Origin: an uncultured Gammaproteobacteria bacterium
GTDB taxonomy: Bacteria; Pseudomonadota; Gammaproteobacteria; UBA9214
Direction of reading: 5' to 3'
Assembly: GCA_963748215.1 (NCBI GenBank)
Contig: CAVVHS010000009.1
Location: 352,001 to 416,000, forward strand
DNA: 64,000 bases
Made by a program: the position numbers and the translations under genes. Numbering within the stretch: the stretch's first letter is position 1; each line of letters starts with the position of its first letter. Of the stretch, positions 8,515 to 56,795 are shown one piece after another. The notes under the pieces are model-generated. The model did not search any database, was not told the origin of the DNA, and worked only from the letters and a program-made list of their open reading frames with translations.

Positions 8515-8825
8515 GGGTGTTTATGGCGTATTCATAAGTATGCCGCCGATTGGAAAGGCAGAAATCCCTGCGGGGATTTTGCGGGACTCGGTTGTGCATT
8601 GTTATGCATCGTGGTGCACAGTGTGCAACGGGCGCCACGGTAAGTTATTGAAGTGAAAGGCTGAAAAATCGCCTTTCTGTCCATTTAATCCGATGGTCGT
8701 TGGTTCGAGCCGAGGACGACGCAGTCGGCCGAAACAACTGCGTCGCATCAGCGACGCTGACCCCGAAGGGGCGAGAGCGCAGCCCGAGTAATCCTTCACG
8801 ACCCACCCTTTAATCAAGTTAGTAA
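8515..8825 (+). repeat. att-like repeat copy 1: GCGGGA direct repeats + IHF-like site + tRNA-Lys 3' half with 82-nt T-loop insert
   Basis: TTTAATCCGATGGTCGTTGGTTCG[8708-8789]AATCCTTCACGACCCACC; homologous to the copies at 10.2, 23.4, 48.5 and 56.5 kb. Confidence 0.9.
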
Positions 8826-10166: not shown

Positions 10167-10238
10167 GTGTGTATTGCGAATTGCTGTTCAGGCGGCTTCG
10201 GCAGCTGGTAAAGACAGTGGCCATGAGATTTCCGACTG
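10167..10238 (-). mobile_element. Right-end fragment of an rve-type IS
   Basis: Similar to the IS ends at 18639 and 36760 (tgtgt..gcgaattg...caggc...atgagatttcc). Confidence 0.6.
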
Positions 10239-10239
10239 G

Positions 10240-10597
10240 TGGAAGCCGGAAATCCTTGCGGGACTTTTTGCGGGACTCGGTTATGCATCGTCCTGTCTCG
10301 TGGTGCAGAGTGTGCAACGGGCGCCACGGTAAGTTATTGAAGTGAAAGGCTGAAAAATCACCTTTCTGTCCTTTTAATCCGATAGTCGTTGGTTCGAGCC
10401 GAGGACGACGCAGTCGGCCGAGACAACAGCGTCGTATAGGCGACGCTGACCCCGAAGGGGCGAGGGCGTAGCCCGAGTAATCCAACACGACCCACCATTA
10501 AAGGGGATTCTGCGGGGATTAACCGCAAATTTTCCTCGTTGGTTAAATTCTGCCTGTAGAGAATTCTTGGTTGCGCACCAGTAACAGACTCGAATCA
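10240..10597 (+). repeat. att-like repeat copy 2 (tRNA-Lys 3' half with T-loop insert)
   Basis: CTTTTAATCCGATAGTCGTTGGTTCG[10397-10478]AATCCAACACGACCCACCA; right arm interrupted by the IS at 10598. Confidence 0.92.
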
Positions 10598-18174: not shown

Positions 18175-18591
18175 TTAAATACGATTAGAAAGCTGGTAAT
18201 CCACATTAATAAAAGCGCCAATATCTGCCAGGAAACGAATCGTTCTGGCGCCGAAACCAACATCGGGTGCTGTTTCGTTTTTATCGACTGACAAAACCAG
18301 GACCACGCCAATTCGGGGTGATAAATTATGGCTTTTTATCACTTCAAGGATCTTTTCCTTGACCGGTTCAATTTGCTTGATAAGTTCGTTCGTCAAATCA
18401 TAAACGTCCACATCATCAGTAATCGTTTCCGTAGATAACTCCCATGAACTGATCACGGGTTTGTCCAATCCGCTGCTTGCACCGGAAGCATCGACTGCGG
18501 TGGGTTCTATGCCAAGCAGGCGAGTGATGTCATCGGGATTGAAATGATAGCCACTTAGTGTGAAGTAGGCCCTTCCTTTATTAGAAGCCAA
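18175..18591 (-). CDS. DUF4279 domain protein
   Basis: AYFTLSG..FNPDDITRLLGIEPT...FLADIGAFINVD pattern. Confidence 0.75.
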   Translation of the reverse strand: MASNKGRAYFTLSGYHFNPDDITRLLGIEPTAVDASGASSGLDKPVISSWELSTETITDDVDVYDLTNELIKQIEPVKEKILEVIKSHNLSPRIGVVLVLSVDKNETAPDVGFGARTIRFLADIGAFINVDYQLSNRI

Positions 18592-18638
18592 GATATTACC
18601 CTGATCAATTGATTGTAAATATGATGGGTGATTATAGC

Positions 18639-19725
18639 GTGTGTGTGGCGAATTGTTACACAGGCTGCTGCGGGCACCTGGTATAGCTCACGGCAATGAG
18701 ATTTCCAACTGAGTTTGTTGAGATCCGCACGGTGGATAATGGCTTCACCACTGATTTCTGACGGTGTATTGCCGTCGAGTGGATTGTGCACACGATGAGC
18801 GTTGTAATACTGCCGAAAGTTTTCCAATTTCCTCTCCAGGTCGCTGGCGTTCCAGAAGAGTGCCTGGTCAAGATATTCGCGGCGAATGGTCCTGATCAGC
18901 CATTCGACGAAGGAATGCGATAACGGTACGTACGGAACGGGTTTGATCTCTTCGACATTCATGATGCGAAGATTCGCTTGCCATCGGTGATACAGGAATA
19001 AAGGGTCATTGTCAGAACTGAGGTAGTGTGGAATACCTCTGGGTAGAGGACGCCTTGTTGAACATGCGACAAAGGGCAATACCATCGACATCGCCCGTAT
19101 GGACGCCAAAGCCGATGATGCGCCGAGTGAACTGATCCATGATGACGAGTACCCGGTGGCTCTTCGAAAGAATGGATTCACACCGAAACTGATCAATGCT
19201 CCAGAGGCTGTCCTTCGTGTGTTCTGGAAAAGACAGCCATGATGGCCCATTGTCATCGGAGCTTGGCCGGTAATGTGCGGCGAGGACACGCCGCACTACA
19301 TCTTTATCGATGTCGATTACGAACGCGTTGTTGATCTGTTGTGCGATTCGTGGGCATCCGAATCGAGGATTGCGTTGCTTCAGTTCGACGTTAGCCTGGA
19401 TGGGTTCCTGCGATGGGCCCTTGGGACCTGGCTTGCTTTTGCTGCCAGATGAATACAGCCGTTGATAATTTCGCTTCTTGAGAATGTCGTCAAATGCCAA
19501 AAGCGTCGATGGCCGAATAATCACGTCGACCCGCTGAATGCGGCATGGGCTGAGAAACAGCGACCAGAAGCCGAGCAGGAGTCTATCAAGTGCCGAAAGA
19601 TTGGGTGCGCGTCTCCTGGCGCGGTTCATAACCAGGAGCTGCTGCTTCATGAGGAGGCTGTCAGCGACGACAGCCCCCGCCCCGCCGGGCCCCGGCAGTA
19701 ACCTGCTCAGCATAAAGTGGAGATG
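18639..19725 (-). mobile_element. Degenerate rve/integrase-core IS transposase remnant
   Basis: Fragments KPGPKGPS...NPRFGCPRIAQQI, DSLWSID, VPLSHSFVEWLIRTIRREYLD across frames. Confidence 0.85.
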
Positions 19726-19826
19726 AATTCTGGATACGTAATAGCTTGCTACTTACCCTTTACATGATGTTCTTCGCTACAATAGCTCCCTGTTACACCT
19801 TATTCATTTGACAAGCATAGAGAAAT

Positions 19827-21035
19827 TTGAACTCATCGATTACGAGAGCGGTTGACGTCCTCATCATCGGCGCCAGCGCCGCCGGGCTGATGTGTGCAAT
19901 CGAGGCAGGCAAGCGGCAACGCAGTGTGCTGGTCATCGATCACGCCAACAAGGCCGGCAAGAAGATCCTGATGTCCGGTGGCGGCCGCTGTAACTTTACC
20001 AACTACCAGGTCGGTGCGCATAACTTCCTGTCCCACAATCCGCATTTTTGTAAATCCGCCTTGAGTCGTTTCACTCAATGGGATTTTATCTCCATGGTCG
20101 AACGCCACGGCATTCCTTACCACGAGCGCGAGCATGGCCAGTTGTTTTGTAATGACAGCGCCAAGGACATTCTGAACATGTTACTCGAGGAATGCCAACG
20201 TGCAGAGGTGCGCGTACAACTCGACACCTCGGTTGGAGAAATTAAAAAAAACAGTGATGGCCGCTTCCAGGTTAAGATCGAAAATCGCCTTCAACCCGCT
20301 GTTACCGATTGCCAATCCCTGGTGGTGGCCAGCGGCGGCCTCTCGATCCCCAAGATGTGCGCCAGTCCGATTGGTTACCGTATTGCCGAACAGTTTGGAA
20401 TAAACATCCGGGCCACCCGTGCCGGTCTTGTACCCTTTACCCTGCATGAGGCAGATAAACAACGCTTTGCAGAGTTGGCTGGGATCGCGGTGGAGAGTGT
20501 CGTCTCGAATAACCGCGCCCGGTTTCGCGAGAACATCCTGTTCACCCATCGGGGCTTGAGTGGTCCGGCGATCCTGCAAATTTCTTCCTACTGGCAGCCC
20601 GGCGAAAGTGTCACGATTAATTTATTACCCGACAAACACGTCGCCGAACTGCTCACCGTTGCACGCCAGACTGAGGCCAGTAAAAAACTCAAGACCATCC
20701 TGACGCAATGGCTACCAAAGCGATTGGTGGCGGCCCTGATCGATGATGCACTGCTGGAGAACCCGTTACAGCATCTGAATCAGGAGCAGATTCAGTTTGT
20801 CAGTGACGCCATCCATCAATGGGCGCTGCGACCCAATGGGACCGAAGGCTATCGTACGGCAGAAGTCACGCTCGGGGGTGTGGATTGTGATGCACTCTCG
20901 TCAAAAACCATGGAATCCCAAAACGTGGCCGGATTATATTTTATTGGTGAGGTGCTGGACGTGACGGGCTGGCTAGGCGGTTATAACTTTCAGTGGGCCT
21001 GGTCGTCCGGCTGGTGTGCGGGACAATATGCCTGA
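19827..21035 (+). CDS. HI0933/YhiN (BaiN) family flavoprotein
   Basis: GKKILMSGGGRCNFTN, ENILFTHRGLSGPA, GWLGGYNFQWAWSSG. Confidence 0.93.
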   Translation: MNSSITRAVDVLIIGASAAGLMCAIEAGKRQRSVLVIDHANKAGKKILMSGGGRCNFTNYQVGAHNFLSHNPHFCKSALSRFTQWDFISMVERHGIPYHEREHGQLFCNDSAKDILNMLLEECQRAEVRVQLDTSVGEIKKNSDGRFQVKIENRLQPAVTDCQSLVVASGGLSIPKMCASPIGYRIAEQFGINIRATRAGLVPFTLHEADKQRFAELAGIAVESVVSNNRARFRENILFTHRGLSGPAILQISSYWQPGESVTINLLPDKHVAELLTVARQTEASKKLKTILTQWLPKRLVAALIDDALLENPLQHLNQEQIQFVSDAIHQWALRPNGTEGYRTAEVTLGGVDCDALSSKTMESQNVAGLYFIGEVLDVTGWLGGYNFQWAWSSGWCAGQYA

Positions 21036-21070
21036 ATGCATAGGCCGGCAACCAGGCGGTTACCGGCTTA

Positions 21071-21457
21071 TCATGGCATGTTTATCTGGCAGTCTTTTTC
21101 AGTAAAGGGAAAGACATCGGTAAATCCCATGATGTCGGCGAACGGCAACACCAGAAACACCAGTGCCGCGGCACCAGGCAGGCTGCTACCGTCGGCAGGC
21201 AGCTCCTCGAATTTTTGATTCATGCTGCGCACATCCTCCGGGGTCATGCGTGCAGCGCGCGCGACGGCCATGGCCGGATACACACTGCGTTCGATCAAGG
21301 CGGATTTCACCTCTTGCCGGTCGAGCAGTTTACCAACCTGTCACAGGCAAGTTGATCCTGCTGCTTCGGGCAATAGCTGCCTCGCCGCTACGCTCCATGC
21401 AATGACCAGGAATGTCAAACGGTCGAAATCGGACAGAGATAACTCCCGATTCGCCAT
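21071..21457 (-). pseudogene. PA2779-family-like protein with an in-frame TGA
   Basis: LLDRQEVKSAL...EELPADG...FLVLPFADIMGFTDVFPF; stop at codon 39. Confidence 0.6.
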
Positions 21458-21619
21458 TATTAAATAGCATAATAGTGTTTGTATCCTTTCCCCTTGCTGT
21501 ACCGAATCCAGCCTGTAACAGGATTAATCTGCCCGCCTGAAGTTACCTGACCTGCGTTAGAATACCCAACCACCACCCGAACATGCAGACTCACCACAGA
21601 GCAAACCGGATTATCCTAC

Positions 21620-23245
21620 ATGCTACGTTTGACCGAAATCAGGCTTCCCCTCGATCACACCGAAGACTCGCTCAAGCTCGCGATCCTCGAGCGGCTGGGG
21701 ATTCCGGCGGAGGACTTGCTCGGATATTCCATCGCCCGCAGCGGACATGATGCGCGCAAGCCGAAGGCGATCGTGGCCGTGTACACATTGGATGTTGAAA
21801 TCAAGGGTGAAGCGGCAATGCTTCAGCGATTCGCGCACGATCCGCATTGCATACCCACGCCGGATACCGAATATCACTTCGTCGCACAGGCACCCACCGA
21901 TTTTGAATCACGCCCGGTGGTGATCGGCTTGGGGCCAGCGGGTCTGTTTGCCGCGCTTATCCTGGCACAGTCGGGCTTCAATCCCATCGTGCTGGAGCGC
22001 GGCAAGGCGGTACGTGAACGCACCAGGGACACCTTTGCACTGTGGCGCCAGGGTGTTCTCAATCCGGAATCCAACGCGCAGTTTGGCGAGGGTGGTGCGG
22101 GCACGTTCTCAGATGGCAAGTTGTATAGCCAGATCAAAGATCCGAAACATCATGGCCGCAAGGTGCTCACGGAATTCGTTAAAGCCGGCGCACCGCCGGA
22201 AATTCTTTATGTGAGTAAGCCACACATCGGCACCTTCCGGCTGGTGGGCATGGTGGAAACCATGCGCAACACTATCGAGGCGCTCGGCGGTGAGATTCGT
22301 TTCGAATCGCGGGTGGACGATTTCGAAATTGATAATGGACAGCTGCGTGGCGTAGTGCTCGCCAGTGGCGAACGCATCGCGACGGAGCATGTGGTACTGG
22401 CCATAGGCCACAGTGCACGCGACACCTTTCAGAAACTGTTCGATCGCGGTGTGTATATCGAGGCCAAGCCGTTTTCAATTGGCTTCCGCATCGAACACCC
22501 GCAATCGCTTATCGACACATGCCGCTTTGGCAGGAATGCCGGCAACCCGCTGCTCGGCGCTGCCGATTACAAGTTGGTGCATCACTGCAGCAATGGCCGC
22601 TCGGTATACAGCTTCTGCATGTGCCCTGGCGGCACGGTGGTCGCTGCCGCCTCTGAACCGGGTCGCGTTGTCACCAATGGCATGAGCCAGTATTCACGCA
22701 ACGAGCGCAATGCCAACAGCGGCATTGTGGTCGGCATCACGCCTGAAGATTATCCGGATGGCCCCTTGGCCGGCATCGCCTTCCAACGGCAGTGGGAAGA
22801 ACGCGCTTTTGAGTTGGGCGGTGAAGATTATTCAGCGCCAGGTCAGTTGGTCGGTGATTTCCTGGCCGGACGCCCTTCGACTCAATTGGGCTCGGTCATA
22901 CCGTCGTACAAACCGGGTGTACATCTATGTGACCTGAGCAAGGCGCTCCCCGATTACGCGGTTACCGCAATCCGCGAGGCACTGCCTGCCTTCGGCAAAA
23001 AAATTAAAGGCTTTGCCATGAACGACGCCGTGCTCACCGCCGTCGAGACGCGCACCTCGTCACCGATCCGTATCAAGCGCAATGAAGATTACCAGAGCCT
23101 GAATACGCGCGGACTGTATCCGACGGGTGAAGGCGCGGGCTATGCGGGCGGCATTCTGTCCTCAGCGGTGGATGGCATCAAGGTCGCCGAGGCGGTGGCA
23201 TTAAGTATGGTGCGAAGCCTTAATCCACACGCCCACGATTGCTGA
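21620..23245 (+). CDS. Uncharacterised FAD-dependent dehydrogenase
   Basis: GLGPAG, FGEGGAGTFSDGKL, YSFCMCPGG, GEGAGYAGGI. Confidence 0.92.
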   Translation: MLRLTEIRLPLDHTEDSLKLAILERLGIPAEDLLGYSIARSGHDARKPKAIVAVYTLDVEIKGEAAMLQRFAHDPHCIPTPDTEYHFVAQAPTDFESRPVVIGLGPAGLFAALILAQSGFNPIVLERGKAVRERTRDTFALWRQGVLNPESNAQFGEGGAGTFSDGKLYSQIKDPKHHGRKVLTEFVKAGAPPEILYVSKPHIGTFRLVGMVETMRNTIEALGGEIRFESRVDDFEIDNGQLRGVVLASGERIATEHVVLAIGHSARDTFQKLFDRGVYIEAKPFSIGFRIEHPQSLIDTCRFGRNAGNPLLGAADYKLVHHCSNGRSVYSFCMCPGGTVVAAASEPGRVVTNGMSQYSRNERNANSGIVVGITPEDYPDGPLAGIAFQRQWEERAFELGGEDYSAPGQLVGDFLAGRPSTQLGSVIPSYKPGVHLCDLSKALPDYAVTAIREALPAFGKKIKGFAMNDAVLTAVETRTSSPIRIKRNEDYQSLNTRGLYPTGEGAGYAGGILSSAVDGIKVAEAVALSMVRSLNPHAHDC

Positions 23246-23349
23246 AGGCGGCACTATTGATATCCTGTGTATGGCGAATTACTGCTTATGCAGCCACAGG
23301 CAGCTGATGAAGGCCTGGGCAAGGGATTTCCGGCAGAATCGACTGTTCA

Positions 23350-23910
23350 CAGTTCGGGACTTTTACGGGACACAGTCCTGCACAACTATGCACCGTTATG
23401 CAATCGAGGCAACGGACGCCCCAAATTACCCGTATAAAAACAATCATATACATGCCAACTCTGTCACTCATAATGCTGGGGTCGGTGGTTCGAGCCGAGG
23501 AAGACGCAGTCGGCCGGGACAACCGCGTCGCATTAACGGACGCTGACCCCGAAGGGGCGAGGGCACAGCCCGAGTAATCCAACACGACCTACCATTAAAA
23601 CAACTAGTTACCTCTTGTATTTCTTCCCACAAAAATTGATTGTGGGGATTTTGCAGGGATTAACCGCATACTTTCTCGTTGGCTTGATTTCACCTGTAAT
23701 AAATTCAATTGGTTGCGAATCAGTAACCGACTCGAACTGTCGTTTCCTGGACAAAACATTCGATGCTTGTCGTCGAATGTCGCAGAGTGGCGAATTCGGA
23801 CATACGAAACTGATATCGGAACAACTTCGCTGCATTGTTCAGCCTATGGGGAAATTCCATTTCCTGGCGCCGCTATTTTCAGCGGCGAATTGCCGAGCGT
23901 TCAGGCCTCT
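23350..23910 (+). repeat. att-like repeat copy 3: chimeric tRNA-Met/tRNA-Lys 3' half with T-loop insert plus conserved right arm
   Basis: TCACTCATAATGCTGGGGTCGGTGGTTCG[23493-23575]AATCCAACACGACCTACCA; 23637-23908 matches 48802-49063. Confidence 0.9.
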
Positions 23911-24035
23911 GCTGTTCCACATCATGAGTCAGCAGTGAACGAATGACTGATTCAATCAGCCTCCCTCAGGGAATCGTAATTTTCGCCGATAATCAACCAA
24001 CTAGCTGAACAGGCGTTGCACGCGGCAGTGATGCA

Positions 24036-25520
24036 GTGGGGCGAAGAGTGCCCAGGGTGTGGCCGACATCGCGATGGCGTGTGCCTGTCAATGCAGTCGC
24101 TACGGAGATTCGAGTATTGAACATGTTGGCGCAAAAGTTGGCGGAACCGCAACCGGTAATCACTGATAACCGGCTGCCGAAAATCATCGAGCTGGTATCA
24201 CTCACGCTGGATCAGCCGCATTTCCAGAGTGCGGCAATCGCGCTGGCGACGAAACTGGCCGTCGAACTATCCTGCAGCCGTGTCAGCATCGGCTTCCTGC
24301 GAGGCAGGTTCATCACCGTGCGTGCCCTCTCACACAGTGCCAGCCACGGCGTCAAGACCAGCCTGCTGCGTGCGATTGCGGAGGCGATGGAAGAGGCGAT
24401 TGACCAGGATACGGTGCTGGTCTGTCCGGGCAGGGGCCATGTCAATATCGCACACCGCACACTCATGGAACAGAACCGGGATACAACCGTCTGCAGTATT
24501 CCGCTCGTCGATGACCAGCGGATCATCGGTGCCATGACCTTCGAGCGCAACAACGGGATTGCCTTCGATGCCGATACCGTCGAGCTCTATACCCATGTCG
24601 CGAACCTGGCCGGGCCGATCCTGGAACTCAAGCGCCGTAATGATACCTGGCCGCTTATTCGGCTGGCCCAATCCCTTGGCGGTGTGCTGCACAAGCTGTT
24701 CGGTGCGCGACATGTGATGCTCAAGCTCGCCGCGTTGCTGCTGACCCTATTGACAGGTTTTCTTGCCCTTGCAACCGGCACCTGGCGTGTAACGGCGGAT
24801 GCCGCCCTGGAAGGTACCATCCAGCGCGCGATCGTAGCACCCATCGACGGCTTCATCCTCGATTCCGACATTCGGGCCGGTGATCTGGTGCAGGCCGGGC
24901 AGGTGCTGGGGACTCTGGATGACAGGGAGCTGAAGCTCGAGCAGCAGAAAATCACCAGTGAGAAGGCGCGCCATGCGCGCGAGTATCGCAACGCCCTCGC
25001 CGGGCATGATCGCGCGCAGGTCTCGATCCTCAGTGCGCGCATCAGCCAGTCGGATGCCCAGTTGCAGCTGATCAACAAGCAGCTGGAGCGCATGCAGATC
25101 ACCGCGCCATTGACCGGCGTTGTGGTCAGTGGCGACCTGTCCCAGTCGCTGGGCTCGCCGGTCGCGCGCGGCGATGTGCTGTTTGAGGTGGCACCGCTCG
25201 AAGCCTACCGCCTGGTGCTGCGCGTGGACGAGCGGGACATGAACGCGATCGCGACGGGGCAGGCCGGCAGGCTGAAACTGTCGGGATTGCCCGGTGATGC
25301 CCTGGCTTTCGAGGTCAGCCGGATTACCCCGGTGTCCGAGTCCGCGGATGGCGGCAACTACTACCGGGTCGAGGCACAGTTGCACGAGACCCCGGCGCTG
25401 CTGCGTCCCGGTATGGAGGGTGTCGGCAAAATCGAGCTCGGCGAGCGCAAGCTGTTATGGATCTGGACGCACCGCCTGTTCGACTGGATGAAGCTGAAGG
25501 CCTGGTCCTGGTTGCCCTGA
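24036..25520 (+). CDS. GAF-domain HlyD-family periplasmic adaptor (5' end uncertain or truncated)
   Basis: GAF-like N-terminus, APIDGFI..RAGDLVQAGQVL, LRPGMEGVGKI, WIWTHRLFDW. Confidence 0.85.
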   Translation: MGRRVPRVWPTSRWRVPVNAVATEIRVLNMLAQKLAEPQPVITDNRLPKIIELVSLTLDQPHFQSAAIALATKLAVELSCSRVSIGFLRGRFITVRALSHSASHGVKTSLLRAIAEAMEEAIDQDTVLVCPGRGHVNIAHRTLMEQNRDTTVCSIPLVDDQRIIGAMTFERNNGIAFDADTVELYTHVANLAGPILELKRRNDTWPLIRLAQSLGGVLHKLFGARHVMLKLAALLLTLLTGFLALATGTWRVTADAALEGTIQRAIVAPIDGFILDSDIRAGDLVQAGQVLGTLDDRELKLEQQKITSEKARHAREYRNALAGHDRAQVSILSARISQSDAQLQLINKQLERMQITAPLTGVVVSGDLSQSLGSPVARGDVLFEVAPLEAYRLVLRVDERDMNAIATGQAGRLKLSGLPGDALAFEVSRITPVSESADGGNYYRVEAQLHETPALLRPGMEGVGKIELGERKLLWIWTHRLFDWMKLKAWSWLP

Positions 25521-25521
25521 C

Positions 25522-26343
25522 ATGGCCCGGTCGATGTACAGCCAGCACTGGTACCGGGTGGCGGACATCAGGCCTCGGCTGCGCGGACATATCAGCCTGC
25601 ACCGTCATTACTACCGTGGTAACCGTTGCTATCTCCTGCAGGATGAGGCCACCGGTGCATTTCATCGCTTCGGCCCCGAAGTCTACGAAATGATCGGCCA
25701 GATGGATGGCGTACGCACGGTCAACGAGATCTGGGAAGAGACACTCGACCGGCTTGGCGATGACGCGCCGGGCCAGGAAGAAACGATGCACCTGCTCGGA
25801 CAGCTGCATGCCGCTGATATCCTGCAGTGTGATCTGACGCCGGATGCGCTCGAGGTGTTTCACAGGCATCGTCACAAGCAGCGCCAGGACTGGAAGCAGC
25901 GCGTGCTGAATCCGATGTCGTTACGGCTGCCGTTGTGGGACCCGGACCGTTTCCTGTTACGCTGGCTGCCGTACCTGCGCCCGGTGTTCACCTGGGCCGG
26001 GCTGGCCGTGTGGCTGCTGGTCGTGGCCACGGGCGTGGTGCTGGCCGGCCTGCACTGGGAATCCATCACGGCAGACATCGTTGACCGGGTGCTGAATCCC
26101 TGGAACCTGGTCATCATGTTTTTCACCTATCCCTGCATCAAGCTGCTGCACGAGTTCGGGCATGCCTTTGCCACGCGCCTGTGGGGTGGAGAGGTGCACG
26201 AGATGGGCATCATGTTCCTGGTGCTCATGCCCATCCCCTATGTCGATGCGACCGCGTCGGCCGGCTTTCGGGAGAAGCACCGGCGCCTGGCGGTGAGTGC
26301 GGCGGGCATGATGGTCGAGCTGTTTCTCGCACCGCCGCGGTGA
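25522..26343 (+). pseudogene. PqqD-like/M50 site-2 protease, truncated by a deletion
   Basis: KLLHEFGHA zinc motif, PYVDATAS, AAGMMVELFL then an abrupt junction with adhesin repeats. Confidence 0.8.
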
Positions 26344-29300
26344 TCAACGTGAATAATGCCCCAACCGGCAGCGTGACGATCGACAACATCACTCCTGCCG
26401 AGGGTGACACGCTCACCGCATCCAACACCCTGGCCGATGTGGACGGCCTCAGTGGTCCGGTCAGTTACCAGTGGTACCGTGACGGGCTGGCGATCGGCGG
26501 CGCGACAGGAACAACGTATACCACTACACAGGCCGACGTGGGCGCAGTGATTTCGGTGGCTGGCAGTTACACCGATGACCAGGGCACAGTCGAGAGCGTG
26601 AGCAGCGCGGGCACCGCCGCGGTCACCAACGTCAATAATGCCCCGACGGGTGCGGTGACGATCGACAACACCACGCCGGCCGAAGGCGATACGCTCACGG
26701 CATCAAACATCCTGGCCGATGTCGATGGACTTAGTGGCCCGATCAGCTACCAGTGGTACCGTGATGGCGTGTCGATCGGTGGGGCCACAGCCTCCACCTA
26801 CACGACGGTCCAGGCCGACGTCGGTGCAGTAATCACTGTAATAGCGAGCTATACCGACGACCAGGGTACGGCCGAGAGCGTGAGCAGCACCGGTACGTCA
26901 GCAGTCACCAACGTCAACAATGCCCCGACGGGTTCCGTCAATATCGGTGGTACGCCGACCGAGGACCAGATGCTCACGGCCTCGAACACCCTGGCGGATG
27001 TGGATGGTATGGGGCCGGTTTCGTACCAGTGGTACCGGGATGGTGTCGCCATCGTCGGCGCAACCGCGAGCACCTATATCCTCGGTGATGCCGATGTGGG
27101 TACGACGATTACGGTCGCGGCCAGCTACACCGACGGTCAGGGTACGAATGAGAGCGTGACCAGTGCCGGTGTGGGTCCGATCGCCAATGTTAATGACGTG
27201 CCGACCGGCAGCGTCACGATCGACAACACTACGCCGGCCGAGGGCGACACGCTGACGGCTGCCAACACCCTGGCCGATGTCGACGGCCTGAGCGGGGCGA
27301 TCAGTTACCAGTGGTATCGTGACGGTGTGGCGATCGGTGGGGCTGCCAATAGTACCTATACCACCGTACAGACGGATGTGGGTGCCGTAATCAGCGTGGT
27401 CGCCAGCTACACCGACGACCAGGGTACACCCGAGAGTGTCAGCAGTACGGGTACCGCGGCAGTCACCAACGTCAACAATACCCCGACGGGTTCCGTCAAC
27501 ATCGGCGGTACGCCGACCGAGGACCAGACGCTCACGGCCTCGAACACCCTGGCGGATGTGGACGGGATGGGGCCGGTCTCGTACCAGTGGTACCGGGATG
27601 GTGTCGCCATCGTCGGCGCGACCGGAAGCACCTATACCCTGGGTGATGCCGATGTCGGTACGACGATGACGGTCGCGGCCAGCTACACCGACGGGCAGGG
27701 TACGAGTGAGAGTGTGACCAGCGCCGGTGTGGGTCCGATTGCCAGCGTCAACGATGTACCAGCAGGCCAGCCGGTCATTACCGGTACGGTAGCCGAGGAC
27801 CAGGTGCTCACGGCAGACACCTCCGGCATCAGCGATGCGGACGGGCTGGGTACCTTTGGTTACCAGTGGTATCGCGATGGCATGGCCATCGGCGGTGCGA
27901 CGAACTCCACCTATACCCTGGGTGATGCCGATGTCGGCGCCACGATATCCGTCGAGATCAGTTACACCGACGGGCAGGGAACCAGTGAGGCGATTACCAG
28001 CGCCGGTGTGGGTCCGGTTGTGAACGTGAACGATGCACCGGCTGGGCTACCGGTTATTGCCGGCACACCTGTGGAAGATCAGATAATCACGGTTGATACA
28101 ACAGGCATCACTGATGCCGACGGCATCAGCGGTGCGTTCAGCTACCAGTGGTACCGCGATGGTGTCGCCATTGCCGGTGCAAATGGCGGGGGCTATATCC
28201 TTGGGGATGCGGATGTTGGCGCAATCATTACCGCTACCGTCAGCTACGTCGATGACCAGGGCGCCAGTGAGTCCGTTTCCAGTGCCGGTGTCGGCCCGAT
28301 TGCCAATGTCAATGATGCGCCGACCGGCAGCGTTTTTATCGACAACATGACACCGGCTGAGGGCGACATGCTCACCGCGTCAAACTTCCTCGTTGACGCC
28401 GATGGCCTGAGCGGTGCGATCAGTTACCAGTGGTACCGGGATGGCATCGCCATCGGCGGTGCAACAGCCTCCACCTACACCAGCGTGCAGGCAGATGTGG
28501 GCGCCATGATCAGCGTGGTGGCAAATTACACCGACGACCAGGGCACCAGCGAGAGTGTCAGCAGCGCCAGCACGGCGGCGGTCACCAACGTCAACAATGC
28601 CCCGACCGGCAGCGTCATCATCGATAACATGACACCGGCCGAAGGCGACACCTTGACCGCCAGCAACACCCTGGCGGATGTCGATGGCCTGAGTGGCCCA
28701 ATCGGTTACCAGTGGTATCGCGACGGGGTTGCCATCGGTGGAGCCACCGGCAGTGCCTATACCACCGTGCAGGCCGACGTCGGTGCGGTAATTACCGTCG
28801 TGGCGAGCTACACCGATGACCAGGGCACGGCCGAAAGCATAAGCAGCGCCGGGACCGCGGCGGTCACCAACGTCAACAATGCTCCGACCGGTGCGGTGAG
28901 CATCAGCGGCACACCGGCCGAGGATCAGACGCTTACGGCCTCGAACACGCTGGCGGATGTCGACGGGCTTGGAGCCATCAGCTACCAGTGGTACCGCGAT
29001 GGTATTGCCATTGCCGGTGCGACTGGAAGCGCCTATACCCTCGGTGACGCCGATGTAGGTGCCACGATAACGGTGGCCGCCAGCTATACCGACGGACAGG
29101 GTACAAATGAGAGTATGACCAGTAACGGAGTGGGTCCGGTGGTCAACGTGAACGATGCTCCAACGGGCAGTGTCACCATCGAAAACCCGACGCCGGCCGA
29201 GGGTGACATGCTGACGGCGAGCAACACCCTGGCAGACGCTGATGGCCTGAGCGGTGCGATCAGCTACCAATGGTACCGGGATGGCGTGGCCATTGCCGGT

Positions 29301-30902
29301 GCCACGGGATCGAATTACACCACAGTGCAGGGAGACGTCGGTAGCGTCATTACGGTGGTGGCAAGCTACACCGACGATCAGGGCACGGCCGAGAGTGTGA
29401 GCAGTACGGACACAGCGGCAGTCACCAACGTCAACAATGCCCCGACGGGTTCAGTGAGCATCAGCGGCACGCCGGCAGAAGACCAGGCGCTCACCGCCTC
29501 TAACACGCTGGCGGATGTGGATGGTATGGGACCGGTCTCCTATCAGTGGTATCGGGATGGTGTTGCCATTACCAGCGCGACCAGGTCCTTCTATACCCTG
29601 GGAGATGCTGATGTGGGCGCGATGATTACCGTCGCCACCAGCTATACCGACGGGCAGGGTACCAGTGAGAGCGTGACCAGTGCGGGCGTAGGTCCGGTTG
29701 CCAATGTCAATGATCTGCCAGGTGGCTTGCCGGCCATCACAGGCATGGCGCAGGAAGACCAGGTCCTGGTCGCCGACACATCCACCATCAGCGATGCTGA
29801 CGGTCTCGGAGCCTTCAGCTATCAGTGGTTGCGTGACGGATCAGCCATAGCCGGTGCCACCGGCAGTACCTATGCCCTGGACGATGCCGACGTCGGTAGC
29901 CAGATCAGTGTGACGACCAGTTACATCGATGCCAAGGGTACTGCAGAGAGCCTGACTTCAGCGCAGACCGCGCCGGTCGCGAATGTGAATGATATTCCGA
30001 CCGGTGCCGTGACGATCGATAACCTGATGCCGGGTGAGGGCGACACCATCAGCGTCAGTCATACGCTGGCGGATGCCGATGGTATCAGCGGCCCGATCAG
30101 TTATCAGTGGTACCGCGGTGGCGTCGCCATTGCCGGGGCAACCGGCATGACCTATACGACCACCCAGGCCGATGTCGGTACTGTCATTACCGTAGAGGCG
30201 AGTTACACCGATGATCAGGGTTTCGCCGAGAGCCAAAGCAGTGTGGGCGCGCTGGTTGCGGGTGTTTTTGTCGACCCCAGTGAAGATACAACTGATGAAA
30301 CAGTTGTGCCGCAAACAGAACCCCCTGTGGTTTTGCGTGACAGCATTGGCGCGACCCCGGTGGGAAATGAAGAGCAATCCGGTGTAATGAAGGAAATAAT
30401 TGCCATCCACGAAGTTGCAGCGGAAGGCGATACCGATTACCGGGTCGATCCGTATCAGTATCTGGACGATGCTGACCTTGAACTGGATGAAGTTCGGAAA
30501 GACAACGTTATAAAACATGCGGTGCGCAGTATTGTCCAGGCCGGGTATCAGATAACCGAGGAGATGCTGCAACTGTTTGATCTTGTACGTATCAAGATGA
30601 GTGAAGTGGACGATCAGCCGGCGAGTGGAGTTATCAAGTCTGTGGGTGGTCTCGCCCTGTCTGTGTCTGCGGGCGTTGTGAGCTGGGTGCTTCGCGGCGG
30701 TGCCCTTGCTGCGAGTATGCTGTCATCAGTCTCTGTGCTGAAAGGGTTTGATCCCTTGCCAGTCATGGACATGAATCCCAAGAAGGGTAACCGTCCCGGG
30801 CATGAAGATGATGCAGACAGTGATGTTGATAATATGTTCGAAGAGGCGGATCTGGAAGAGAAGGGAGAAGCTTCGCAGACAGCAGGGAAAGCGGATAAAT
30901 GA
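26330..30902 (+). CDS. Giant repetitive surface/adhesin protein, C-terminal part (N-terminus lost)
   Basis: 14 repeats of 92-94 aa (NVNxAPTG...YQWYRDG...SYTD); C-terminal WVLRGGALAASMLSS..FDPLPV motif. Confidence 0.8.
26345..30250 (+). repeat. 14 intragenic tandem repeats of 276-282 bp
   Basis: YQW codons at 26466, 26748, 27024, 27306, 27582, 27861, 28143, 28425, 28707, 28983, 29265, 29541, 29820, 30102. Confidence 0.92.
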
Positions 30903-33806
30903 CAAGACTTGGTCCTGCGATGCGAATAAGCCTCGGCCTGATCATGGCCGTAGTTTCCATTATCCTGCTGTCTGACCTGATCGGAATTATTCCGGACCGC
31001 TCATCAGCCGTGATTGATGGCAGAAAACGAATCGCAGAGACAGTGGCCGTACAGTACTCTATGGCAGTCAGAAAAAACGATTACGACTCCATTGAGTCCA
31101 GCCTCAAGATGCTGGTCGAGCGGAATGACGACGTGCTCTCTGCAGCATTGCGTGCAGAGAATGGCAGATTGATTGCAGTATCGGGTGATCATGAAGCCCA
31201 CTGAGATGCCAGTCTTGGCGACAAGTCTACTGCCACCCAAATGCAGGTTCCGTTGTATAAGAATGCGCGTTTGAAACAGAAATGGGGCAGCGTTGAATTG
31301 CGCTTCAGGCCTGTAAACCGGACCAATATTCTCGGATTCGGAATCAGTCCCATGCTGGTGCTGACGCTGTTTGTTGCAATCTTCGGATTTCTCGTCTTCC
31401 TGTTTCTTGTCAAGAAAATATTCACATCTATCGATCCCGGCTCGGTGGTTCCCTCGCGGGTCAAACGTGCGCTGGATACGTTGACCGAAGGTGTGCTGCT
31501 GATTGATAACAAGGGCATGATCCTGTTCGTGAATACAACGTTCCTGACAGCCACCGGTACCCGTGAAAAGGAACTGATTGGGAAGCGGGCGGTGAGCCTG
31601 CGCTGGAAGAACATTGATGGCGAGATCCCCTGGTTGAAGACGCTGCAATCCGGTGACAGTGCTACAGGTGAAACAATAGCGCTCGAAACTCCCGGCCAGG
31701 CCGACAGGCAGTTTACCGTTAACAGTTCGCCCGTGCTTGATGAAAAGGGTGTCCGCAAGGGTGCCATGGTGACATTTGATGATGTCACCGAACTGGAAGA
31801 AAGAAATGATGCGCTCAGGGAGATGGTCAATAAGCTCAGGGAGTCTTCGGAGGTAATCAACAGGAAAAACGAGGAACTGCTCATCCTGGCAACCCACGAT
31901 CCGTTGACCAACTGCAAGAACAGGCGCGTACTCTTCAGCAAGTATGAAGGTGTCTATCACGACGCCGTTGATGAAAAGAGCGAATTCAGCTGTCTCATGA
32001 TCGATATCGATCACTTCAAGCGGATCAATGACAGCTTCGGCCATGCGGCGGGAGACACGGTCCTCAAAGCGGTTGCCAATGCCTTGCGTGGCATGTTGCG
32101 CGGTAATGACGAGGTGTTTCGCTATGGTGGCGAGGAATTCTGCATGCTGCTGCCAGCAACCTACGAAGTCAACGCGCAGAAACTGGCGGAGCGATTGCGC
32201 AGGAATATCGAGTTGCAGAAGATTGATAATGCGGTGGCAGGAGAGGTGATCAGTGTAACCGCCAGCATCGGTGTCAGTTCAATCACTTCCGGATCCGGCA
32301 GCTTGTCGGAACTGATCGAGCAGGCCGATATCGCGCTTTATCATTCCAAGAATAACGGACGTAACCGCGTTTCTGTCTGGAGTGAAATGTTGCATGAGAC
32401 CGGGCCGGCGTCTGTTGACGCGCAGGGCGGTAACCAGATGATAGCGGAGAATATGTTGGCGAGAGCCGGCCTCGATCATGTAACGGGTTTGCCGAGCCGG
32501 ATCAATTTCAGGGAGAAGCTGGCGCAATCGATAGTAAAGTCGCGGGAATCAGGCAAGCACACTGCCGTGTTGCTGGTGGATCTGGATACCTTTCAGCGCA
32601 TCAATAATGTATTTGGCTATACCTGCGGCGACACGATGTTGAATACCGTGGCACGAAGGTTGTCAGAATCACTGCGCGCCTCGGATGCGCTGGCCAAGCT
32701 GCCGGAAGGTCTGCTGGATCAGAGTGTATACGGGCTGGGTGGCGATGAATTCGGTGTCCTCCTTGCAGAGATGTCAGCCAGCGATGATGTCAATATTGTT
32801 GTCGAGCGCCTGATTAACAGCATTACCGAACCCTTCGAGGTCGATGGCCACCAGGTACACATGACGGTGAGCATTGGCGGCAGTCGCTATCCCGCTGATG
32901 GCGAAGATGCAGATACCCTGATCACCCGGGCCGGACTCGCCTTGCAGCAGGCAAAACGTATGGGCAATCAAAATTGTCTGTTTTTCAGGGATGAATACAT
33001 CTCGACAGTGAGGCAGGATTACGAGATCGAGAAGGACCTGCGTCGTGCGCTGCAGGCAGATGAATTCGAGTTGTACTTCCAGCCGCAGCTCGATCTGGCT
33101 AGCCTGAAAGTCATTTCCATGGAGGCATTGATCAGATGGCACCATCCGGAGCGCGGCATGGTATCGCCCGCCGAATTCATACCTGTTGCAGAGGCTTCCG
33201 GCCTGATTGTGAATATCGGGCAGTGGGTAATCGAAACAGCCTGCAGACAGATCCGGAGCTGGCTTGACATGGGGATTGTCCTGCCGGTGGCTGTGAATAT
33301 CTCGGCGATACAGTTTCGCCATAAGAGTCTGATCGAACAGATCAGGAATGCAGTAGCATCTGCAAGAATCGATCCGGACTGTCTGGAACTGGAGATCACA
33401 GAATCGACCATTATGGAGAATGTTGACCATGCGCTTGAGACGATGGAGGAACTCAGGAAGTATGGTCACAGGATAACAATCGACGACTTTGGGACAGGCT
33501 ACTCCTCACTCGAGTATCTGAAGCGGTTCCCCGTCAGCACAATCAAGATCGACCGGGCATTCGTCAAGAATGTGGATGAAGACAAGAGTGATGCCGCCAT
33601 TGTGCAGTGCTGCAGTCACCATGGCACACGGTATGAATATGAAAGTGGTCGCGGAAGGGGTTGAGAACGAGCAGCAACTGTTCTTCCTGCGCAATTTGCG
33701 CTGCGACATGGTGCAGGGATATCTGCTGGGTTACCCGCTGCCTGCCTCCGAGGCAATCGCGCTGGTAGATGAAAACCATCGGCAGGCCAACTTAAGGGGG
33801 CTCTGA
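30899..33806 (+). CDS. Membrane PAS-GGDEF-GGDEF-EAL protein, interrupted (in-frame TGA at 31202; frameshift near 33610)
   Basis: RYGGEEF, LGGDEF, MEALIRW, IDDFGTGYSSL, VVAEGVE across three ORF pieces. Confidence 0.85.
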
Positions 33807-33807
33807 T

Positions 33808-34092
33808 TGGTGAGGAGTTCTGCATGCTGCTGCCTGAAACGTACGAAGTCAACGCGCAGAAACTGGCGGAGCGATTCCGCAGGAGTATCGAGTCGCAGAA
33901 GATTGACAATGCGGTGGCAGGAGAGGTGATCAGTGTAACCGCCAGCCTTGGTGTCAGTTCAATCACTTCCGGATCCGGCAGCTTGTCGGAACTGATCGAG
34001 CAGGCCGATATCGCGCTTTATCATTCCAAGAATACCGGGCGTAACCGCGTTACTGTCTGGAGTGAAATGACGTATGAGACCGAGCCGGCATC
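33808..34092 (+). pseudogene. Duplicated ~285-bp fragment of the first GGDEF domain
   Basis: Near-identical to 32128-32412. Confidence 0.9.
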
Positions 34093-34179
34093 GCTGTCTT
34101 CAGGTGGCTGTCAGGCTGGCCGATATTTTTCATGTGACTACCTATAACGGGCAGGCGTGACACAGGCAGGGCCACTAAA

Positions 34180-34647
34180 ATGACAGATTTCCCCGGTGAC
34201 AGCAAAGGTTCAGGTAATTTTTCTCTGGAAACCCTGGACACGGCACAAACTGACCGTGCCAGATCATCGTTCGTTATCGATCTGCGCCGATCTCCACGTA
34301 TTGAGACGCGCCTGCCGGCCAGACTCATATCGGAGCGCGGCACGGTTAAAGGTCTGGTCACCAATCTATCCCGCACTGGCTTGCGTTTTGAGGCTGGCAA
34401 GGCACTGGCAGATCTAATGATTGCGAATTCCGGCCGTGTGACCGAGGGCGCCGGGATTACTGTGGAGGTTTGCTTTGAGGTGCCGGCAACCGATGCGGGT
34501 TCTCAGGCTGTGATCGTGCTGGCACGGAACGTTTACGTCATTCAGAGCAGCAGTGAAAATTACCAGTGTGGTCTTGAGTTCAAGTTCTTCGCTGAAGGCG
34601 AGGATGTACTTGTGAACTACCTGCACGAAAGGGGGGTTGCCGGCTGA
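34180..34647 (+). CDS. PilZ domain protein
   Basis: RRSPR and NLSRTG motifs, CGLEF. Confidence 0.85.
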   Translation: MTDFPGDSKGSGNFSLETLDTAQTDRARSSFVIDLRRSPRIETRLPARLISERGTVKGLVTNLSRTGLRFEAGKALADLMIANSGRVTEGAGITVEVCFEVPATDAGSQAVIVLARNVYVIQSSSENYQCGLEFKFFAEGEDVLVNYLHERGVAG

Positions 34648-34745
34648 AGATTGTGCTATCTGCCGGTTCGGTCTCCGCAAGGCGGTGGCCCAATGAAGTG
34701 TGAAGCCGGAATGACTATCTGATCGTTGCAGTGGCTAATGTGCAA

Positions 34746-36065
34746 TTACTGGATAGTATTGACCTGTTGGGGCGGTTTGACCTCGCAAGCCCAGAGTAGT
34801 TTTCCGGTGCCGGCGAGGATTCTGTAGGCACTGAATATGAGATCATTCAGGCCGTTTATGTAGTTGATGCTTGCCTGGAATACCTCGTTCTCCTGGTCGA
34901 GTAAATCAAGCAGGGTGCGTTGGCCAATGTTGAACTGCTTGCGGAAGACCACTAATGCCTGTTTGCTCGCATCTTCGTAAACCTTGAAGTGTTCAAGCTG
35001 GGTTTTTGCTGTCTCGTAGGCGTTCCACGAGAGCTGGATCTCTTCAACGACCTGTCGATAGGTGCGTTCATGAAACTCCCGCGCCTGCCGGAGTTTAAAG
35101 ACGCTCTCCTTGCGTTTTGCAGTGTCGCTGCCGCCGGTGAGTTTGTACTGTCCCCGCACCATCACTTCCGCATCATTGTTGGAACCCCGTACACCATCAA
35201 GATTGTCGTTATTGGAACCCTTTATCTCGAGGTCTATCCTTGGGAAAAACAATGCGTTCGCTGCTGAATGCTGCTGTCGTGCAGCCTCGATACCGGCATC
35301 GGCGGACTTGAGCCTGGGGTGATTCTCCACGGCGATAGCAGTTGCCTCGTCGAGTGTCGCGGGTAACAGATGCGCCGGGGGTGCCGGTTCGGCCAGATTG
35401 GCCGGGTCATGACCGACGATATTCCTGAATGTGGCTCGTGCATCCCTCAAGCGGTTTTGCTCTGCCATGAGATTGGTCCGGGCCAGGGCAAGACGCCCCA
35501 GCGACTGCTGGACATCTGCCTTGCTGCTCACGCCGCGTTCGTCGCGCTTGACAATGCGGTCATAGGTTTCCTGATGGCTCTTCAGGTTTTCGGTTGCCAA
35601 CTGGACGAGTTTTTGTTCGCTGATAAAATTCAGGTAGGCCTCTACCGCCTTGAGACCGACAGCTTCAGCAGTCGCGAAGGTATCGTAGGCCTGTGAGTTC
35701 ACACGTGCGCGCTGTCGTCCGAATTCGCTCTTCGTTCCAAAACCATCAAACAGCAACTGCCTGATCCTGATTTCAGCCTCCTGCCGGTTTAAATTCCTGG
35801 AACCGTCGCCGGCAGTTCGTGTCGTTGGATTGTCACTGGTTTCCCGGCCGGCCCCGGCGCTGATGTCAACCTGTGGAAAGAAACCACCTCTGGCTTGTTC
35901 CATCTGTTGTTCGACAGAATCCCGTTCGCTGCCGGCTATCAGTATGTCCGGATTGGATTCGATGGTTTCCCTTACTGTGTCTGCAAGGGATACGGCGAAT
36001 GCATCGCCACCCAGCGTCAACCCGAGTAATTGAGGAATTATCCAGCGCCATATTCGCATGGTCAT
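34746..36065 (-). CDS. TolC-family type I secretion outer membrane protein (LapE/AggA-like)
   Basis: QLLFDGFGT, QFNIGQRTLLDLLDQENE. Confidence 0.9.
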   Translation of the reverse strand: MTMRIWRWIIPQLLGLTLGGDAFAVSLADTVRETIESNPDILIAGSERDSVEQQMEQARGGFFPQVDISAGAGRETSDNPTTRTAGDGSRNLNRQEAEIRIRQLLFDGFGTKSEFGRQRARVNSQAYDTFATAEAVGLKAVEAYLNFISEQKLVQLATENLKSHQETYDRIVKRDERGVSSKADVQQSLGRLALARTNLMAEQNRLRDARATFRNIVGHDPANLAEPAPPAHLLPATLDEATAIAVENHPRLKSADAGIEAARQQHSAANALFFPRIDLEIKGSNNDNLDGVRGSNNDAEVMVRGQYKLTGGSDTAKRKESVFKLRQAREFHERTYRQVVEEIQLSWNAYETAKTQLEHFKVYEDASKQALVVFRKQFNIGQRTLLDLLDQENEVFQASINYINGLNDLIFSAYRILAGTGKLLWACEVKPPQQVNTIQ

Positions 36066-39132: not shown

Positions 39133-39152
39133 TCAGCCGGGAGAGGGTGACG

Positions 39153-48480: not shown

Positions 48481-49063
48481 TCTATGGCGAATAGAAAATT
48501 ATGCCGCCGACTTGAATAGCAGAAATTCACTGCGGAAGTTTTGCGGAGCTCGGTTCCGCATCGTCCTGCATCGTGGTGCACCGATTGCAACGGGCGCTAC
48601 GGTAAGTCATTGAAATAAAGAGCGTAAAAACGCGCTTTCTGTCCTTTCAATCCGATGATCGTTGTTCGAGCCGAGGGCGACACAGTCGGCCGAGACAACA
48701 GCGACGCTGACCCCGAAGGGGCGAGGGTGCAGCCCGAGTAATCCAGCACGCCCCACCATTCATACAAAGACTTATCCCCCTGCTGTTAGATCCGCAACCA
48801 CTGATTGCGGGACTTTTGCGGGGATTGGCCGCAAATCTATAATTACGCCTATAGAAAATACAATTAGTTGCGAGTCAGTAACTGATTCGAACTGTCGTTT
48901 TATGGACAAAAAAATCCGATGTTTGACCTCGAATGTCGCTGAGTGGCGAATTCGGACATACGAAACTGATATCGGAACAACTCCACTGCAATGTTCAGCC
49001 TATGGGTTATTACATGTCCTGGCGCTACTATTTTCAGCGGGGAATTGCCGAACGCTCAGGCCT
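48476..49063 (+). repeat. att-like repeat copy 4 (insert has lost one hairpin loop)
   Basis: CTTTCAATCCGATGATCGTTGTTCG[insert]AATCCAGCACGCCCCACCA ending at 48758; left arm like copy 1, right arm like copy 3. Confidence 0.9.
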
Positions 49064-49116
49064 GTCCTTGGCGAATTCCTATTCATGCAACAATTGGCCT
49101 CTGGGGGGTGTTTGTG

Positions 49117-56263: not shown

Positions 56264-56466
56264 GCCGGAGTCTCCTCGACGGGATTCATCCGGCTCAGTT
56301 CCCGGATGCGGTCGTTGCGGTCCACTTGTGTCGCCGCAGGGACGCTGTGAGTTCTGCGCTGCCAAAAACATGGATATCCATCCCGGGTAACCGCTTGAGC
56401 CTGTTGGCCTCTTCAGGAAGATTGTACTGTACCATCCGGAAATTCTTCCATGGCACGAAGTGCAGG

Positions 56467-56795
56467 GCGAATTTCAGCCCAGGCGGAAGGGTGGCAGCGT
56501 CTAGACCGTGGCATTGTGTGTTCCATCTGGCGGAAGCTGATGAATCCATGCAGGTATTTTTCGGGACCCGGTTATGCACCGTCCTGCATCGTGGAGCCTT
56601 GGTCGAAACAGTAAATTATTGAATAAAAAGGCTTATAAATTGCCTTTCTGTCCTGTTGATCCGATGGTCGCTGGCTCGAGCCGCGGCCGACGCCGTCGGT
56701 CGGGACATCGGCATCGCACAAGCGATGCTGACCCCGAAGGAGCTAAGGTGCGGCCCGGGTAATCCAGCACGACCCACCATTTAATCAATATGTTT
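56467..56795 (+). repeat. att-like repeat copy 5 (diverged)
   Basis: TCCGATGGTCGCTGGCTCG[insert]AATCCAGCACGACCCACCA ending at 56779; left flank like copy 2. Confidence 0.85.

Follow-up and report, generated by a model that had tools for sequence, protein, structure and literature searches.

How does a tRNA-like sequence come to carry the letters of one tRNA on its left side and those of another on its right? This question is raised by a site in a 64,000-nucleotide (nt) stretch of contig CAVVHS010000009.1 from an uncultured gammaproteobacterium of the UBA9214 lineage (assembly GCA_963748215.1). We refer to the whole stretch as the window (C9:352001-416000) and to the genome under study as G000. 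An initial annotation, made from the letters, had described the site as a chimera with tRNA-Met to the left and tRNA-Lys to the right of an insert in the T-loop; all letters that it quoted are present at their positions, with 23460-23600 reading as given. The site combines elements of two sister families of units of about 0.3-0.5 kb that are found in the genus, whose members combine an upstream U arm with a tRNA 3' half, running from the anticodon loop through CCA, and usually also with a downstream D arm. In G000, the Lys-type units all carry a core of the RtT family in their T-loop, and the Met-type units are plain direct repeats. We find that the hybrid site has two parentages, that these switch within the six bases TGGTTC and that the arrangement is present in independent assemblies. 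The region 23268-23913 is thus probably a recombinant boundary repeat and neither a tRNA gene nor a new type of insertion. Its parts are the following:

23268..23353, + strand: far-left segment starting with TGTATGGCGAATT, common to the far-left of four other units of the window
23354..23464, + strand: Met-type U arm of 111 nt, starting with a TTCGGGACTTTTACGGGAC-type motif
23465..23491, + strand: left arm with the anticodon loop CTCATAA, the variable region, the 5' strand of the T-stem and the TTC of tRNA-Met
23486..23491, + strand: junction interval TGGTTC, in the alignments the sole switch-point bases common to Met-type and Lys-type parents
23492..23575, + strand: RtT-type structured core (the 'insert'), about 82-83 nt relative to an uninterrupted T-loop, between TTCGA and ATCC
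23576..23594, + strand: right arm, the last 19 nt of tRNA-Lys(UUU) (18/19)
23595..23913, + strand: Lys-type D arm with hairpins after CCA and a TTGTGGGGATTTTGCAGGGATTAACC motif

The identity of both arms was established by comparison with the 43 tRNAs that ARAGORN detects in the genome. The left arm equals nucleotides 31-57 of the elongator tRNA-Met(CAU), whose gene is located at C8:221035-221111, in 27 of 27 positions (BLAST E = 7.9e-12), with a 12/12 match as runner-up and tRNA-Lys agreeing at 13/14 positions of the T-stem only. The right arm differs from the end of tRNA-Lys(UUU), encoded by the only such gene of the genome (C9:310571-310646), by one C>T change. The proposed composition is therefore borne out against the genome's own tRNAs. 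The reservation that the host tRNA-Met might naturally end in the right-arm sequence falls away, since the 3' end of tRNA-Met differs and does not match this arm; a gene for tRNA-Ile2 is absent from the 95%-complete assembly and could hence not be compared. The reported mismatch in the T-stem GGTGG/CCAAC is also real and amounts to exactly one G.A pair, which arises because the T-stems of tRNA-Met and tRNA-Lys differ by a single T/G. What precedes the insert is the 3' half of tRNA-Met from the anticodon loop onward, but not a tRNA-Met gene: the site contains neither an acceptor 5' strand nor a D-arm upstream and no complete cloverleaf, and ARAGORN finds no tRNA gene anywhere in the 64-kb window.

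To assign the remaining segments, we aligned the hybrid with Met-type units M211 (C8:211837-211791) and M207 (C8:207209-207163), which both repeat the 3' half of tRNA-Met in direct orientation downstream of its gene and have an uninterrupted T-loop, and with the Lys-type units, which are named K317, K328 and K335 upstream of the window and w1-w5 within it, the hybrid being w3. A search of the genome with the two tRNA-Met pieces also retrieved two 2-mismatch hits on C7 and C8, which lack a tRNA-like context and are unrelated. The U arm is identical to M211 in 87/111 positions (78%) and to M207 in 81/111 (73%), compared to 43-57% for Lys-type units, and BLAST aligns the upstream 143 nt of w3 with 84.6% identity to M211 and 78.6% to M207. 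The same Met-type U arm is also present in the congeneric genomes G008, G046, G045 and G044. In the left arm, identity is 27/27 to M211 (100%), 25/27 to M207 (93%) and 15-19/27 (56-70%) to the seven other aligned Lys-type units, in line with the earlier remark that this arm is unlike that of the other copies. To the right of the junction, the core is 76-92% identical to Lys-type units (92% to the cores of K317 and K328) and unalignable with Met-type units (29-31%), the right arm matches in 15-18/19 versus 6-9/19 positions and the D arm with up to 78% versus 18%. This D arm is homologous to the sequence 3' of the real tRNA-Lys gene and of other units, with the homology to w4 reaching to about position 23913. 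At the opposite end, the far-left segment is also shared by two decayed rve_3 genes at their 3' ends, and its first ~15 nt recur after the orthologous gene in the congener G046. The proposal of a strand exchange 'within the insert or T-loop' thus stands as a T-arm exchange between two tRNA-associated families, but its place has to be corrected, as the switch is located to the left of the insert in TGGTTC and not inside it.

The initial annotation had named an assembly chimera as the circumstance that would undo its claim. We have compared the region 23100-24000 with Logan contigs, not raw reads, of four sequencing runs:

23246-23694: contig of run X2, 0 differences, same study as the probable source sample
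23462-23593: contig of run X3, 0 differences, same study as the probable source sample
23233-23748: contig of run X5, 10 differences, different study
23394-23544: contig of run X6, 0 differences, third study

The junction is bridged in four runs from three studies with ~98-100% identity, and the suspected chimera is thereby countered at the level of contigs. Some loose contig ends in this region belong to other units of the same family, and the one that X2 and X3 show at 23282 corresponds to the situation in G046, where an IS5-like fragment comes next. Stretches of the region that lack cover in some runs, and runs with a small share of the sequence words, do not enter this evidence; two RNA runs alone contained a small share of these words. 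The contigs show no joints of excision or circular forms, although they cannot reveal rare ones. An exact word spanning the hybrid junction has no match in public genome or metagenome contigs, collections from which the window's own genome may have been left out. Similarly, a DNA search of 45-46 other genomes of the genus did not uncover a second hybrid, and no hit extended over the Met-type U arm as well as the core.

What then is the insert? A loose motif scan detected similar T-loop inserts beside tRNA-Ser(GGA), tRNA-Ser(UGA), tRNA-Ser(GCU), tRNA-Gln(CUG) and tRNA-Gln(UUG), and five Ser/Gln-linked copies in the genome score 59.4, 55.6, 52.5, 48.5 and 45.9 bits with the Rfam model of RtT (RF00391), above its gathering score of 45. 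Lys-type units remain below this threshold (K317 32.7, w1 31.3, w4 30.4, w2 28.7 and w3 21.4 bits), the score of the hybrid corresponding to E = 0.14 in 701 nt. At gathering thresholds, Rfam accordingly returned nothing for the whole window, the sub-threshold RtT matches being found by a permissive search alone. We have built a covariance model, R1, from eight aligned Ser/Gln-linked copies, whose fold comprises 26 pairs, compensatory changes being present in seven. When applied to 122,902 bases of window and loci, R1 finds exactly eight Lys-type units (K317, K328, K335 and w1-w5) with E-values between 1.7e-13 and 6.8e-07 and no further match at E <= 1. The Rfam consensus of RtT is organized as T-stem, TTCGA, core, AAUCC and tRNA-like 3' end, which makes a 'T-loop insert' a regular feature of the family's architecture. 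Judged by these sequence and model matches, the insert is the core of the RtT or tRNA-linked-repeat (TLR) family and not a new element. A T-loop intron, a tmRNA- or YrlA-like RNA, an IS200/605-type mini-element and an integron attC-like site had been considered for the insert and were dropped once RF00391 matched. The sequence shows no clean target-site duplication at the ends of the core.

Within the family, the hybrid has the poorest RtT fold of all copies: its core scores 38.2 bits with R1 (E = 6.8e-07, the lowest of eight), and the z-score of its minimum free energy is -0.85 compared to -2.5 for w2, a fold no better than that of shuffled sequence. For this reason, the hybrid is most likely a neutral relic. 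As a separate observation, a sequence at about C8:225130-225320 (- strand), about 100 nt upstream of the real tRNA-Gln(UUG) gene, matches this tRNA from its 5' end to the T-loop, where it is interrupted by an RtT core (RF00391 48.5 bits), and has a broken acceptor 3' strand; it constitutes a second case of a core interrupting otherwise tRNA-identical sequence.

The initial annotation had further suggested that the insert could be a common crossover core linking different tRNA loci. This idea is not sustained, as the core is found in none of the eight Met-type units that were read (two in G000, four in G008:C9, one in G046:C117 and one in G045:C9), which all have uninterrupted T-loops, and R1 detects no core on the contigs containing these units. 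The core is also variable in Lys-type units of the genus. A pattern search for an uninterrupted Lys T-arm matched in 6 of 37 genomes, and the congener G012 contains four Lys-type 3'-half repeats of this kind, none of which is a tRNA gene:

C212:3300-3594, C301 (two sites) and C373 of G012: Lys-type repeats with uninterrupted T-loop and no core

Two of the four have their U arm in common with K317, and at the point of its core their T-loop continues without a break, which places an indel of ~82 nt exactly at TTCGA|ATCC. Since homologous units exist without it, the core itself is a gain/loss polymorphism. In this way, four combinations are encountered: Lys-type with core, Lys-type without core, Met-type without core and, in the hybrid, a Met-type left side with core.

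Repeat finding and BLAST reveal nine Lys-type units, all on the + strand, that are distributed over the 98 kb following the real tRNA-Lys gene. Five copies are located in the window at about 8562-8817, 10251-10506, 23464-23603, 48524-48767 and 56548-56788 and, in a BLAST search of the genome with the second of these, three upstream of it at C9:317896-318027, 328158-328394 and 334985-335221; the same search also returned an uninterrupted match at C9:310602-310651 within the tRNA-Lys(UUU) gene. Distances between copies range from 1.7 to 25 kb, with intervening genes, and their left arms copy 25-31 nt of the tRNA, starting in the anticodon loop. The hybrid is found at C9:375594, 65 kb downstream of the tRNA-Lys gene, with neighbouring units at distances of 13 and 25 kb and genes in between. 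The other units of the window are:

8520..8808, + strand: w1, Lys-type, with U arm, Lys left arm, RtT core and right arm (RF00391 31.3 bits, R1 55.2 bits)
10170..10594, + strand: w2, Lys-type, its D arm lacking part of the 5' side (RF00391 28.7 bits, R1 62.0 bits)
48481..49068, + strand: w4, Lys-type, with D arm (RF00391 30.4 bits, R1 45.3 bits)
56461..56779, + strand: w5, Lys-type, the most distal and most diverged (R1 48.9 bits), orthologous to a unit in G046:C499

The R1 score drops with distance from tRNA-Lys (Spearman -0.83, n=8), as would be expected if distal units were older. The cargo in the arrays and around them is of ordinary accessory character and includes an Mrp/Nuo-like cluster, an FKBP isomerase, flavoproteins, an HlyD-type protein, an OEP-family outer-membrane protein, a heavy-metal ATPase and an ABC transporter. 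Between the 90% identical units w1 and w2 lies a 'cassette' of 1.7 kb with a single FKBP-type isomerase gene (8995-10137, + strand), and the island behind tRNA-Met holds a PPIC-type rotamase. At G008:C10:40480-40750, a Lys-type unit directly adjoins a homologue of window positions 43314-47263, and a 20-kb block of G000 (window 23600-43300, with a GAF-HlyD gene, a large repeat-rich open reading frame and an OEP gene) is missing at this place, although only one side is visible in these fragmented assemblies. The reading frame, which encodes 1573 aa (26181-30902, + strand) and is built of repeats of ~279-282 nt, may specify a secreted repeat protein; the GAF-HlyD gene is located just upstream and the OEP-family outer-membrane efflux gene nearby. 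A repeat of ~360 nt resembling a miniature inverted-repeat transposable element occurs in about 20 copies in G000 and once in G046 (C499:8559-8925), right after the unit orthologous to w5.

Met-type units differ in their association with an integrase. In G045, a tyrosine-recombinase frame reads towards the Met-type unit and terminates about 70 nt beyond the unit's CCA:

4354-5085 of G045:C9:336000-343000, + strand: integrase frame of 266 aa (PF00589, 58.7 bits), which may lack part of its N-terminus

A tblastn search with this protein against the 1.5 kb following every unit yielded only a decayed remnant of its C-terminus in G000, 60-236 nt after M211 (C8:211555-211731; 47.6% across 63 aa, small database, E = 6.6e-12). 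From the G045 integrase and this remnant, it follows that Met-type units are the borders of integrase-borne islands in tandem. Homologous integrase remnants also adjoin tRNA-Arg(ACG) (C5:1930-2602) and tRNA-Pro(GGG) (C6:890401-890496), and PF00589 has no match on those contigs of G008, G024, G015, G012 and G023 that bear related units. The U arms of both families are homologous, as evident from shared motifs in the alignments, with a related motif recurring in the D arm, and all units, the nine Lys-type on C9 (+ strand) and the two Met-type behind tRNA-Met on C8, have the same orientation as the tRNA genes.

The genes directly left of the hybrid bear on its origin:

19700..23282, + strand: two-gene cargo block encoding an HI0933-like flavoprotein and an FAD-dependent protein
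18555..19713, - strand: decayed rve_3/HTH_32 transposase gene (similar to the insertion sequences IS481/IS3), adjoining the left edge of the cargo block (95-97% identical stretch)

The cargo block is found in 2 of 30 other genomes of the genus, G008 (97% amino acid identity) and G046 (95%). In both, it shares its contig with Met-type units (C9 with four units and C117 with one, respectively), and no RtT core is present there, as would be expected if the right-hand portion of a Met-array block had moved into the Lys array. The G008 contig stops after 574 unrelated bases 3' of the FAD gene, and in G046 the orthologous FAD gene is followed by an IS5-like fragment and a P-type ATPase gene. A second decayed and diverged IS481/IS3-like transposase gene (rve_3, weak HTH_32) is located at ~36760-37480 (- strand), and further copies of the decayed rve_3 genes on C6 and C8 are 70-77% identical. 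The motif TGTRTGGCGAATT matches ten times at up to two mismatches compared to 3.0 expected matches. Every unit has a site ~200 nt to its left, and others coincide with the 3' ends of the two rve_3 genes or fall within the D arms of w3 and w4. An inverted copy, as in the terminal repeat of an insertion sequence, was sought on the minus strand and not found:

8520, 10170, 18642, 23268, 23784, 36762, 48481, 48940 and 56461, + strand: TGTRTGGCGAATT sites

On this basis, we propose that a Met-type unit at the right end of the two-gene accessory block would have recombined with a Lys-type unit. The crossover would have taken place in the few bases that both have in common at the edge of T-stem and T-loop (GGTCG-n-TGGTTC, with the switch inside TGGTTC) and would have fused the two-gene block into the 98-kb tRNA-Lys array. 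Such an event would be a short-homology exchange, either illegitimate or resembling gene conversion, and not the normal reaction of the integrase of the family. We consider this origin probable and prefer it over an integrase reaction at the T-loop, because the identity to the tRNA starts in the anticodon loop in both unit families and because a partner junction is not found. Integrases of this kind reportedly (Williams, in 2002) usually cross over in the anticodon loop. A similar exchange anchored in the T-arm, with a resident RtT unit as partner, would explain how Lys-type units gained a core that the congener's units do not have. In more general terms, the short universal T-arm sequence would allow tRNA genes, the att repeats of islands and RtT units to swap segments, with the hybrid being one product.

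Several observations weigh against this proposal. Neither a left-hand junction of the transfer nor a reciprocal product is found in the genome or in public collections: the Lys-left/Met-right counterpart, which the initial annotation had suggested to search for, is absent from the own genome at up to 2-3 mismatches and, as exact word, from the same two public collections, from which the window's genome may have been left out. The event can therefore not be reconstructed as a simple two-site exchange. The un-recombined parent, cargo with a complete Met-type unit, was not seen in G008 and G046. Six shared bases are very little identity and leave room for a site-specific enzyme acting on the T-arm, and the usual crossover position of the integrase is an assumption. 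The Lys array shows no match to PF00589, and the tblastn search with the G045 integrase returned only noise in the Lys-type D arms. That Lys-type units would serve as island borders is suggested by arm homology, orientation and apparently variable cargo.

Among the alternatives, the most serious invokes a circular Met-type island that integrated off-target by its own integrase at the left pseudo-T-arm of a Lys-type unit, the hybrid being an attR-like junction. This would account for the switch exactly at the edge of the T-loop, an insertion point in the T-loop being documented for the ssrA islands of Dehalococcoides in the accessible text of PMC3146451, and is consistent with the integrase linkage of Met-type units and the single orientation of all units and tRNA genes. 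The reaction should have left an attL-like partner, which is found neither in the genome nor, as an exact junction word, in public collections; the left neighbour w2 is a complete Lys-type unit, and there is no integrase gene in or near the Lys array. The start of identity in the anticodon loop would also place the crossover in that loop instead of the T-loop, and we regard off-target integration as possible but rather unlikely. A different view would hold the hybrid for a selected, functional RtT-like RNA, to which the Met-like left arm confers a new specificity. Its outer helix still forms with one G.A mismatch and one G.U pair, and the arrangement is preserved at ~98-100% identity in contigs of three studies, yet its covariance-model scores are the lowest of all copies with a z-score of -0.85, it was not found in the 45-46 other genus genomes searched by DNA and PMC8144298, in the text available, reports no known function for any tRNA-linked repeat in tRNA operons. 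We regard such a function as improbable. Hardly credible is the idea of an assembly chimera, or of a drifted Lys-type unit that resembles tRNA-Met by chance. A repetitive region with nine units on one contig of a genome from metagenomic samples would invite either, but non-branching contigs of four runs span the site, and an identity to tRNA-Met of 27/27 combined with a Met-type U arm of 111 nt goes beyond drift.

Knowledge of TLRs goes back to 1978, and there is still no accepted account of what they do or where they come from according to the accessible parts of PMC8144298, and the mode of action of rttR is described as still unknown in the text at hand of 10.1101/2024.07.17.603846. Our literature search did not find a link between RtT RNA and an integrase, with most subscription journals outside its coverage, and is thus a weak sign that such a link is unpublished. 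As a speculation to which we assign a low probability, RtT/TLR cores might be passengers instead of autonomous sRNA genes, which spread among tRNA 3' ends by T-arm-anchored exchange and are taken into att sites by islands. If so, the hybrid and the pairs with and without core would be snapshots of this spread, showing a switch of the tRNA target between Met and Lys, and TLR arrays in general would arise as by-products when tRNA 3' ends recombine. What these arrays are, a question of more than 40 years, would then be answered. The hybrid also suggests that, within one chromosome, accessory blocks can move between its tRNA-Met and tRNA-Lys arrays.

How does the site relate to known systems? With hybrid attL/attR sites formed at secondary positions, it shares two half-sites joined at a short identity in a tRNA-like arm, but here a partner junction and an integrase are absent and the junction is not placed where the identity block of the family begins. 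The nearest parallel in the literature consulted is the tandem array of ssrA islands of Dehalococcoides, which, as far as described in the accessible text of PMC3146451, shows repeats within 100 kb downstream, insertion in the T-loop and many islands without integration module, these being interpreted as cis-mobilizable elements that accretion has brought together. The resemblance extends to same-orientation repeats of the 3' part over ~100 kb with apparently variable cargo between them, whereas these islands have plain 20-bp repeats and integrase modules in many cases, and the Lys array has no integrase, an RtT core in its repeats and one putative border combining two tRNAs. The site is also related to the RtT/TLRs of Escherichia coli (RF00391; tyrT-distal), where the core is likewise flanked by a left arm with T-stem and TTCGA and by a right arm copying 18-19 nt of the tRNA end including CCA, with the same consensus motifs GGUUCGAG ... 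GAGA-A-AC ... CCCGNAGGG-CGAG ... CGAGUAAUCC. Classical TLRs are gene-less tandem units of ~100-180 nt directly behind a tRNA, whereas Lys-type units are spread over 98 kb with genes between them, have additional U and D arms and a left copy that starts in the anticodon loop (25-31 nt) and is not limited to the T-stem, and score below the Rfam threshold (21-33 bits). The right arm of the hybrid fits the TLR hallmark of 18-19 bp of tRNA 3' end given in the available text of PMC8144298 (18/19 to tRNA-Lys(UUU)), but the hybrid is neither immediately downstream of a tRNA nor part of a gene-less tandem, and it is the one unit that joins two tRNA identities. A single genus thus displays the core in four settings, in tandem units behind tRNA-Ser and tRNA-Gln, in the putative border repeats of the Lys array, absent from the Lys repeats of a congener, and combined with half of a tRNA-Met in the hybrid. 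These settings provide a dated and comparable record of how the core was gained, lost or exchanged at a single defined position, TTCGA|ATCC, by which the origin and movement of such repeats become testable.

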